Below are positions 6,933 through 53,314 of a DNA stretch of 64,000 bases, piece by piece. The stretch lies in contig NC_043022.1 in assembly GCF_006345805.1 (NCBI RefSeq), forward strand, positions 23,498,001-23,562,000, read 5' to 3'. The position numbers and the translations under genes were made by a program. Within the stretch, counting starts at the first letter, position 1. Each line of letters begins with the position of its first letter. A model generated the notes under the pieces. The model was not told where the DNA came from. It saw nothing but the letters and a program-made list of their open reading frames with translations, and did not search any database. This stretch comes from Octopus sinensis (Eukaryota).

Positions 6933-6964
6933 GGCGGTAAAAACATTGACAGACAACAAATGTG

Positions 6965-7372
6965 GGATCTTTTCGGTTTGAACAGCGTTTTTTTCTAGCG
7001 GTGTCAGATGAAATTGTCACCCATAATTATGACCCTAGTATTGATCTATTGCATTTCAATCTGTTTTAGGGTTAGGGTTAGTGGTGGGGGGGAAGGGTAT
7101 CTTTTTTTCTTCACAAATGTAAATAAACCCAATCTGTTTCTTAAACGAGGGACATATTCATATGGCACAGAATGTTTTCACCTCCACTGATTGGTTGAAA
7201 TTGCAGAAATTGAAGAAAAAAACAACAAATATCTTACAAACTATAGAATTTTCTCAATAAAGCCAAGAGAAAAAGATGTTTTATAAACACATTCTACCAG
7301 TATACGAAGTTTAAAGGTGTTTAGTTACGTGGAAATTATTTTTAAAAACTGCCGTTCAAACCGAAAAGATCC
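6965..7372 (+). mobile_element. TTAGGG-containing MITE, copy 2
   Basis: Both TIRs present; perfect 8-bp TSD caaatgtg; inserted into an RLE-type LINE fragment. Confidence 0.92.
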
Positions 7373-7945
7373 CAAATGTGGGCTGTGCAAGACCAAAACT
7401 GAAGACATCGACCACATTATTGCCAACTGTGAGAGAATGTCTTCCAGATATTATCTTCCTGTGGGGCATGATGTGGTGACCATGCAGTATGAAGCAGGAT
7501 AGCAAAAAAGAAAACACCGACAAAGTGGACCATATTGAGACCAATGGATCAAAAGAATACTGGTAGAACTTAAAAATTAAAACAGTCACCAAGTTAAAAC
7601 ACAAGCGGCCAGATACTTGTATGTGAAACCACACGGAAAAGATATGTTCTGTTGTGGAAATCAGCTGCCTTCTGGACACCACTGTGACTAGGAACATATA
7701 AGAGTACATCTATGGGCCATTGATTGGGAGTTTGCAAATCCACTACTCAAGATACGTTTTCAACTTCATATCTATTATTATTGGAGGAACAGGATGCATA
7801 CCAACCCGCCTGGGGCAATGTATGGCTGAATTTGGATTCCTTGGGAGAGAACGCAAATTCTTAATTATACACTACAAAGGATCACGATGTCTGGGACTAT
7901 AAAAATATGCAAGACCTTCTTAAGATTTAAACAATGATGAATAAA
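7373..7945 (+). mobile_element. R4/Dong-like (RLE-type) non-LTR retrotransposon, 3' fragment
   Basis: CGLCKTKTEDIDHIIANC zinc knuckle, HD motif, KHKRPD, VVEISC (restriction-like endonuclease), all degenerate. Confidence 0.75.
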
Positions 7946-8090
7946 AGAAGATGTTTTCTTTCACAACATTGCTACCAAGCAGGTGGTTGGTCAAAATTCA
8001 TTCTTTCTCCCTCCCTCTCTCTCTCTGTATATATGTATATATATGTATATATATATGTATATGTGTGTATGTATATATATATATATATAT

Positions 8091-8347
8091 AAAAATACAA
8101 AATGGGACAAGAACGCAAAACATTCAAATGAACAATACAAAAAATACGGACGGGTCATTTGAAGCCTCTAATCTTCAGTCAAGAACCGGATCATCCTTGC
8201 AATTTCAGCTGATTAATCTTGAGATTGCTCTGATCTGGCCAGCCCCAAGGAAAAACTAAGCTACGAGCATTAGATTTCTTGGAAAAAGAATCGAATGTAT
8301 ACGAAACAAGGACAGAAAAACGGACGATGTTACACGAATATAAATAC
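8091..8347 (-). mobile_element. Small (TA)n-flanked element carrying the permuted hammerhead-like motif (Penelope/retrozyme-like)
   Basis: Bounded by (TA)n; inverted homolog at 53051-53246. Confidence 0.75.
8172..8244 (-). ncRNA. Candidate non-circularly permuted, K-turn-containing hammerhead ribozyme (core intact)
   Basis: Minus strand GGCUG-GCCAGAUCA-GA-GCAAU-C-UCAAGA-UUAAU-CAGCU-GAAA-UUGC-AAG-GA-UGAUCCGGU-UCUUGA-CUGAAGA. Stems: I UCAAGA/UCUUGA, II GGCUG/CAGCU, III GCAAU/AUUGC. Confidence 0.7.
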
Positions 8348-52885: not shown

Positions 52886-53052
52886 AAAATAACATGCAAA
52901 CAAAATAAAGACTGTACAGCTCAGAAACAAGGATAGGACTGGATGTGTGTATGAGTAACTCAAGGAAAATTACCTAAAAGATTGGAAACGGAAAGCAGAG
53001 ATGGAAAGATAGAACGGATAAATAAATAAATATATATATATATATATATAGG

Positions 53053-53125
53053 GGCTGGCCAGGTTGGAGCAATCTCAAGATTAATCAGCCAAAATTGCGA
53101 GGATGATCCGGTTCTTGACTGAAGA
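53053..53125 (+). ncRNA. Permuted K-turn hammerhead-like motif, family 1 copy 2 (G12A)
   Basis: GGCUG-GCCAGGUUG-GA-GCAAU-C-UCAAGA-UUAAU-CAGCC-AAAA-UUGC-GAG-GA-UGAUCCGGU-UCUUGA-CUGAAGA. Confidence 0.65.
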
Positions 53126-53243
53126 TAAAAGGCTTCGAATGACCCGTCCATGTTTTTTTTTTTTTGCATCGTCTATCTGGATGTTTTGTTGTCCCTTTTT
53201 GTATCACCTAGTTGTCCAGATGTTTTGCGTTCTTGTCCCATTT

Positions 53244-53314
<71 letters not shown>

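Follow-up and report, generated by a model that had tools for sequence, protein, structure and literature searches.

Can a hammerhead ribozyme be built with its core strands in reversed order and its chain opened next to the CUGANGA strand? The question is raised by a 73-nt motif on the minus strand of a 64,000-nt stretch of Octopus sinensis DNA (NC_043022.1, positions 23,498,001 to 23,562,000; hereafter the window, whose positions serve as coordinates and on this strand fall from 5' to 3'). Natural hammerhead types I, II and III are circular permutations of the strand order CUGANGA, GAAA, NUH. A reading made from the letters alone (the sequence-only reading) had proposed the order NUH, GAAA, CUGANGA, and this is supported: every hammerhead element (CUGANGA, GAAA and UH with stems I to III) lies in register from 8244 (G10.1) down to 8172 (A9), and the ring order and nested junction of types I, II and III are not found, the order being reversed. 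The cut, assigned from established hammerhead geometry, falls between 8223 and 8222, in agreement with that reading.

Judged from its sequence, the motif is very probably an active hammerhead in one fold or another. That it acts as a single molecule, bent by a kink-turn (K-turn), at the 3' end (the pseudo-long terminal repeat, pseudo-LTR or pLTR) of a non-autonomous Penelope-like element (PLE) is a finer call, on which we come down just in favour.

Core, families and covariation

A loose descriptor of three 4-bp stems in the order cleavage site, GAAA, CUGANGA (S-G-C) gave 18 matches in 3994 dinucleotide shuffles (whole window, both strands). The strict descriptor, with 5-bp stems, the GA/GA of the K-turn and the bridging helix P4, gave none in 3994, and the real window contains exactly one match, at 8172-8244 (-). 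Standard descriptors had been expected to miss the motif, and they do: no hammerhead or other relevant Rfam family was found in the window or in 8100-8340, and nested folding programs do not recover the structure (z = +0.42). Both are blind to it because stems I and II are pseudoknots; the reversed, knotted order and an opening at a spot presumed unbreakable explain why it was overlooked by standard searches. A normal type I hammerhead 3' of CUGAAGA, sought by eye, was rejected for want of an A15.1-U16.1 pair and of stem I, and a protein-coding region at the motif was rejected as only short frames are present.

Across the genome, a loose pattern in which CGAAA, the K-turn GA and CUGANG alone are fixed has 13,050 matches versus 358 for its reversed control. 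Besides family A, the repeat family of the window copy, the matches represent several families with unlike stems (L100, L217, L218, L136, L071 and L248, the L-numbers denoting loci or copies elsewhere in the same genome). Stem I is UCAAGA/UCUUGA in the window and UCGAGU/ACUCGA in L100, stem III is ACCAU/AUGGU in L217, L218 combines stem II GGCCU/AGGCC with stem III ACAGU/ACUGU, and L136 and L248 have stem II GAAGG/CCUUC.

The genome-wide search and family alignment that the sequence-only reading had proposed speak for the model. Over the 24 pairs of four helices (I, II, III and P4), 84% of cells pair in 16 hand-picked representatives of several families, with two-sided changes in 20 of the 24 pairs, including 6/6 in stem I, 4/5 in stem II and 4/5 in stem III. 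Four of five measures were matched by 0-1 of 500 shuffles and the fifth by 85 of 500, and sliding the partners lowers pairing to 26-41%. The rows are related and were picked to fit the model, two of them (L136, L219) are partly misaligned, the P4 register shifts in some families, and the shuffle counts are not probabilities; the figures are to be taken as strong indications. In this alignment, stems I, II, III and P4 covary and the core is conserved.

The copy in the window shows slight decay, having undergone three CpG-type transitions within the motif as judged against the majority among 29 other copies. At 8231 (K-turn position 3n) it has A where 27/29 have G, at 8207 it has U where 27/29 have the canonical C11.1, and at 8198 it departs from the G of 26/29. 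It pairs G-U at 10.1/11.1, where G10.1-C11.1 holds in 15 of the 16 aligned representatives, as does A15.1-U16.1. Intact motifs occur, for instance, in L019:1602-1674 (+), L100:1577-1649 (-) and the L071 family.

Two more families with the split architecture were met by chance in flanks, at L248:679-757 (+) and L175:1120-1199 (+); in both, the GA/GA element is possibly a K-turn of reversed orientation. Two pattern scans of viral contigs gave at least 203 loci, none above 11 of 15 stem pairs, with CUGACGA and CUGAGGA cores, metagenomes and prokaryote genomes outside the scans.

Table 1. Elements of the predicted ribozyme, its host repeat and the second copy in the window
Feature	Position	Strand	Basis or remark
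Stem II 5' strand (G10.1 = 8244)	8240..8244	-	Upstream-supplied, not from bases 3' of CUGAAGA
Bridging helix P4, 5' strand (8231 = K-turn position 3n)	8231..8239	-	Counterpart of the type-SGC 'I' helix (PMC10085705)
K-turn GA, non-bulged strand	8229..8230	-	Pattern kept across several families
Stem III 3' strand, last base U16.1	8224..8228	-	90% of cells paired; U16.1-A15.1 in 15/16
Predicted cleavage site 3' of C17 (AUC; C17 = 8223)	8222..8223	-	Hammerhead geometry; 5'-end pile-up of family copies
Stem I 5' strand	8217..8222	-	Two-sided changes in 6/6 pairs
5-nt linker between distal ends of stems I and II	8212..8216	-	Sequence; type-SGC linker there typically 3 nt (PMC10085705)
Block G: stem II 3' strand 8207-8211, GAAA 8203-8206 (G12 = 8206), stem III 5' strand to 8199	8199..8211	-	
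K-turn 3-nt bulge 8196-8198 and GA 8194-8195	8194..8198	-	GA invariant in 16/16 aligned copies, at least 13 of them picked by patterns demanding GA
P4 3' strand	8185..8193	-	71.5% paired; register off by one in some families
Stem I 3' strand 8179-8184 and CUGAAGA 8172-8178; ribozyme stops at A9	8172..8184	-	Alignment, covariation
Host repeat: 5'-truncated copy (3' ~267 nt) of a ~860-nt non-coding Penelope-like unit	8079..8345	-	Flanked by (TA)n tracts
Second copy of the repeat in the window	53051..53250	+	Begins at the stem II strand; G12 mutated to A

Host element and the link to Naiads

The host, overlooked in the sequence-only reading, is a Penelope-like retroelement, probably of Naiad type. 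The 251 nt around the motif have 4643 candidate genome copies, the best 39 other full-length matches being 94-95% identical, and the 19-nt 3' motif of family A has 3056 exact genome matches (control, 0). Family-A copies are inserted in (TA)n, variably truncated at the 5' side and arranged in partial tandems of the non-coding unit, and they end at a fixed 3' point ~140 nt past the predicted cut; some are accompanied at the 5' side by an inverted copy, or run on a short way into the next unit. These traits are those listed for PLEs and Naiads (PMC8557442), and together they identify family A as a non-autonomous Penelope-like element. It shows the (TA)n insertion preference of the Naiad clade and differs in lacking the Naiad open reading frame, with N-terminal GIY-YIG and C-terminal reverse transcriptase (RT). 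Repeats of the 2.7-Gb genome match published cephalopod elements.

An autonomous partner of family A was not found. PLE RT and GIY-YIG fragments near L126, L132 and L137 were rejected as such, longer stretches showing no contiguity with motif copies. A further GIY-YIG fragment (L263:4233-4904 (+), Pfam E 1.2e-4) has an upstream Cys cluster and lies near an inverted pair of the L136 family; the two may be separate elements.

Naiads were reported to be without canonical hammerheads and to have only an 'HHR_core' or an 'HHR_half_core', with Naiad_Ovul in the second group (Craig et al. 2021, PMC8557442). Within the supplement of that paper, parsed by eye at CUGAUGA 60/62, CUGAAGA 30/43, CUGACGA 23/23 and CUGAGGA 15/25 core places and in part 25, the split form, opened between A9 and G10.1, ends 11 published Naiad consensi, two of them weak. 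Naiad_Obim and Naiad_Ovul have it with the full K-turn and wholly different stems. It is also present in three Acropora consensi and, as placed by file order, in a single consensus of the Clytia section, a pair from the Morbakka section and another that is probably crustacean; it is weak in the first, ctenophore section and degenerate in Naiad_Esco. Type-CSG, with block C (CUGANGA and its stem strands) intact and perfect stems, occurs in six nematode or neighbouring (rotifer-section) consensi, namely Naiad-1, -2 and -3_Nbra and three in parts 13, 15 and 16 of supplement S5, which brings reversed-ring hammerheads to 17 of 54 Naiad consensi. In the remainder no such motif was seen, whether through absence, another form, line breaks or places outside this coverage. 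Parts 16-19 of S5 (spider and ostracod sections) contain CCCC-CUGANGA with GC-rich stems that fit neither parsed form and are possibly further permutations.

In the octopus genome, the Naiad-type motif has 631 matches (control, 0). It lies in sense 0.5-1.4 kb downstream at 14 of 30 Naiad-RT loci and never in antisense; the RT assignment is by Pfam RVT_1 at E 9.6e-5, below the curated cutoff, and the linkage concerns this sister motif family, not family A. The common motif and target suggest that family A depends on Naiads, and Naiad-type elements are most likely what mobilises it. At L055:2435-2503 (+) a Naiad 3' end, with its motif intact, adjoins a family-A tandem, consistent with common (TA)n targets.

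Fold and cleavage

The K-turn pattern noted in the sequence is kept in several families with unlike stems. Its exact standard form, a C-stem, a 3-nt bulge and tandem GA/AG, is found in family A, L100, L217/L129, L218 and the octopus Naiad family, and independent support comes from the upstream partner GA, which no genome pattern demanded. It is not universal: most of the non-octopus Naiads examined lack it and have instead a bulge, a hairpin at the side or hardly any bend. By the 3b-3n rule, a G at 3n permits ion-induced folding of the K-turn (PMC4382518). The family-A majority has 3n = G, L217-type copies 3b = C and the Naiad family U-U. The K-turns of the first two are predicted to fold in ions and that of the window copy is not, while that of the Naiad family may depend on a protein of the 15.5K/L7Ae type. 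Among the matches listed in a literature search, titles and abstract openings mention no natural hammerhead containing a K-turn.

In the Acropora Naiad consensi, a 7-nt bulge repeats part of a stem III strand, and two registers can be drawn, with a long stem III or with a short stem III and a longer P4, a possible conformational switch.

In the fold that we favour, the core strands would follow the reversed SGC/CSG ring, opened between A9 and G10.1. In octopus-type families one RNA would fold onto itself, its 5-bp stem III running through the K-turn into P4, which would be sent back to the distal ends of stems I and II and replace the usual contact of loops I and II. The RNA would cut after the NUH triplet, and cutting of tandem read-through transcripts would make the 5' end of the RNA then copied by the RT of the element. 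The 5-bp stem III, the GA/GA K-turn and an 8-9-bp P4 recur in octopus-type families, which favours a fold-back within one molecule.

The 5' ends of family-A copies are consistent with such cleavage. Among 90 family-A copies picked by the 3' motif alone, 21 end at -5..+14 of the predicted cut versus 2.9 expected (p = 7e-12); a second sample has 5/20 ends in this interval and 1/20 in the next 20 nt upstream. Other TA-like sites in family A gather only 1-4 ends each. RT stalling would leave ends at the structure's 3' edge, at +25..+49, which holds just 1 of 71.

Several points weigh against a single self-cleaving molecule in a Naiad-dependent element. P4 meets stems I and II without a linker, which by a rough helix-length estimate leaves little room for closure within one molecule, and in some Naiads stem III and P4 form an almost straight rod, unable to fold back. 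The nested minimum free energy structure of both the window copy and the majority copy is a different hairpin, which traps stems I and III. The family-A ends have their mode at +5..+9, on a TAAT linker able to anneal to (TA)n by microhomology. The autonomous Naiad family is without a pile-up (5 of 77 mapped ends versus 5.5 expected, with 10 of 87 copies unmapped); annotated 'no pLTR', it might leave single-copy RNA uncut, or the short 3' fragments might go uncopied, both explanations being ad hoc. For one canonical PLE, cleavage proved dispensable for insertion in vitro, and RNA ends at the site were not observed (PMC11167929). The missing partner of family A and the relatedness of the alignment rows belong here as well.

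Straight rods are workable only head-to-tail with a second copy, and a dimer is therefore a serious rival, if a doubtful one. The same active split hammerhead would be formed by the hairpin of one copy and the arms of another: the loop of the stem III-P4 hairpin presents the stem I and stem II strands, onto which the second copy docks its stem II 5' strand and its stem I 3' strand with CUGANGA. A two-copy transcript would then be cut in one copy only, the other being left intact for retrotransposition. Such an arrangement needs no bend, suits Naiads with the nearly straight stem III-P4, would account for the missing pile-up in the 'no pLTR' family, and fits the frequent tandems of family A; dimers have been proposed for canonical animal PLE hammerheads (PMC4209133), and the same distance problem was raised for some SGC ribozymes (PMC10085705). 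The straight form does not explain, however, why families with unrelated stems keep a GA/GA K-turn, a 5-bp stem III and an 8-9-bp P4, and stem III is non-palindromic, unlike that of the dimeric PLE hammerheads.

It is unlikely that the motif is a conserved non-cleaving or protein-gated hammerhead derivative serving as a binding or template signal for the Naiad RT, with a pile-up produced by TA microhomology or RT stalling. Many copies do retain an intact motif within them, the Naiad family without a pile-up would be explained, cleavage was dispensable for the PLE studied in vitro, and catalysis with a break after A9 is presumed only. Yet families from several phyla keep the catalytic nucleotides, the U-H site and A15.1-U16.1, the CSG form, validated by experiment, sits at the same position in nematode Naiads, and ends are rare at the edge where stalling would place them.

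Known topologies and other repeats in the window

The remark in the sequence-only reading that no description was known is not supported, as the S-G-C order was published in 2023. Eckert et al. (PMC10085705) report natural non-circularly permuted hammerheads of type-SGC, -CSG and -GCS; type-SGC and -CSG ribozymes cleave in vitro, and five SGC RNAs cut at the predicted site with all four helices, including the bridge between stems I and II, required. In that paper, SGC sequences came from metatranscriptomes only, a single bacterial GCS candidate was the one permuted hammerhead from the genome of a known organism, and just two natural CSG sequences, from metagenomes, were reported. CUGAnGA and its flanking stem strands are there assumed to be inseparable, and the descriptor demands stem II right after the core.

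With type-SGC (HRIMA-1 and variants), the window motif shares the block order S, G, C, a short linker between stems I and II, a helix (P4) bridging these stems, and two pseudoknots. In type-SGC, stem II comes immediately after CUGANGA or is set off from it by a single U, and the chain begins and ends between the bridging helix and stem III, whereas in the window these two helices are joined via the K-turn and the chain is opened at A9/G10.1. On sequence grounds, the motif is best described as an SGC with its ends joined and its ring reopened, which would work like SGC and is not SGC as defined. Type-CSG has the same reversed ring, and its bridging-helix strand leads into stem III; it differs in its intact block C. 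The type I minimal hammerheads of canonical PLEs (Cervera and de la Pena 2014, PMC4209133) and those of animal non-LTR retrozymes (bioRxiv 10.64898/2026.07.22.740005) have in common with the window motif the pseudo-LTR location, non-autonomous tandem derivatives, G10.1-C11.1 and tolerance at 9/10.1, but they have the normal ring order and a short palindromic stem III, in contrast to its reversed order, full non-palindromic stem III and extra helix.

In PLE hammerheads, positions 9 and 10.1 are commonly separated by an extra base (PMC4209133), which makes this link the most tolerant one and a plausible break point. The upstream stem II 5' strand proposed from the sequence is borne out: 88% of its cells are paired with two-sided changes in 4/5 pairs, and 15 of 16 representatives form 4-5 of 5 pairs with compensatory changes. 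Its suggested alternative, the downstream GGCU, is not conserved. A standard type-SGC ribozyme with stem II completed 3' of CUGANGA (here by GGCU after a 5-nt insertion) is accordingly most improbable, even though GGCU offers 4/5 pairs in family A and a G-rich strand 0-1 nt past the core of L136 and L248 could pair via G-U. Directly 3' of the core, where the type-SGC descriptor places the strand in an unbroken block C, family A pairs 0/4 and only L136 and L248 of the 16 representatives pair 4/4; in L100, GGCU is gone while the upstream strand keeps 5/5. A chance arrangement within a repeat, for which the lack of an Rfam match and the unremarkable folding energy might speak, has already been refuted by the shuffle (0/3994) and covariation tests and by recurrence across phyla, and is practically excluded.

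The L136/L216/L225 family (e.g. L216:2366, 3201), in 835-nt tandems, has the split fold with a non-standard turn. With its upstream and possible downstream stem II strands, it is a possible link from SGC to the split form.

The words 'kink', 'k-turn' and 'octopus' have 0 occurrences in the main text of PMC10085705. No prior account of a split block C, a K-turn closure or an animal-retrotransposon host, nor of a K-turn hammerhead in a retrotransposon, was found in the mainly open-access literature searched, and among the matches listed for Naiad hammerheads and for permuted ribozymes of Penelope-like elements since 2022 none describes the split motif. Apparently new are the chain opening at A9/G10.1, the K-turn joining stem III to the bridging helix, and the animal retrotransposon host. 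The split form breaks an explicit premise of the six-permutation hammerhead scheme, the K-turn form offers a solution to the geometric puzzle of type-SGC, and a natural K-turn hammerhead would be a ready scaffold for protein-responsive ribozyme switches.

We consider it probable that Naiads carry non-circularly permuted hammerheads clade-wide, one form being a seventh topology that breaks the link between CUGANGA and stem II, with a K-turn scaffold in the octopus types and with cleavage that could be tuned by a host protein of the 15.5K/L7Ae type or switched between folds of one and of two copies. If true, this would be the first occurrence of non-circularly permuted ribozymes in the genomes of animals, with more than ten thousand copies in this one.

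Other repeats lie close to the host element. The broken 3' end of a non-LTR retrotransposon at 7370-8000 (+), which contains a CCHC knuckle (Pfam zf-RVT, E 0.0013) as well as an RPD-type endonuclease motif, is presumably R4/Dong-like; it abuts the family-A element on the opposite strand and looks unrelated to it. Adjoining this fragment, at ~6964-7374, is a ~410-nt element resembling a miniature inverted-repeat transposable element, with 20-nt terminal inverted repeats and many repeats in the window.
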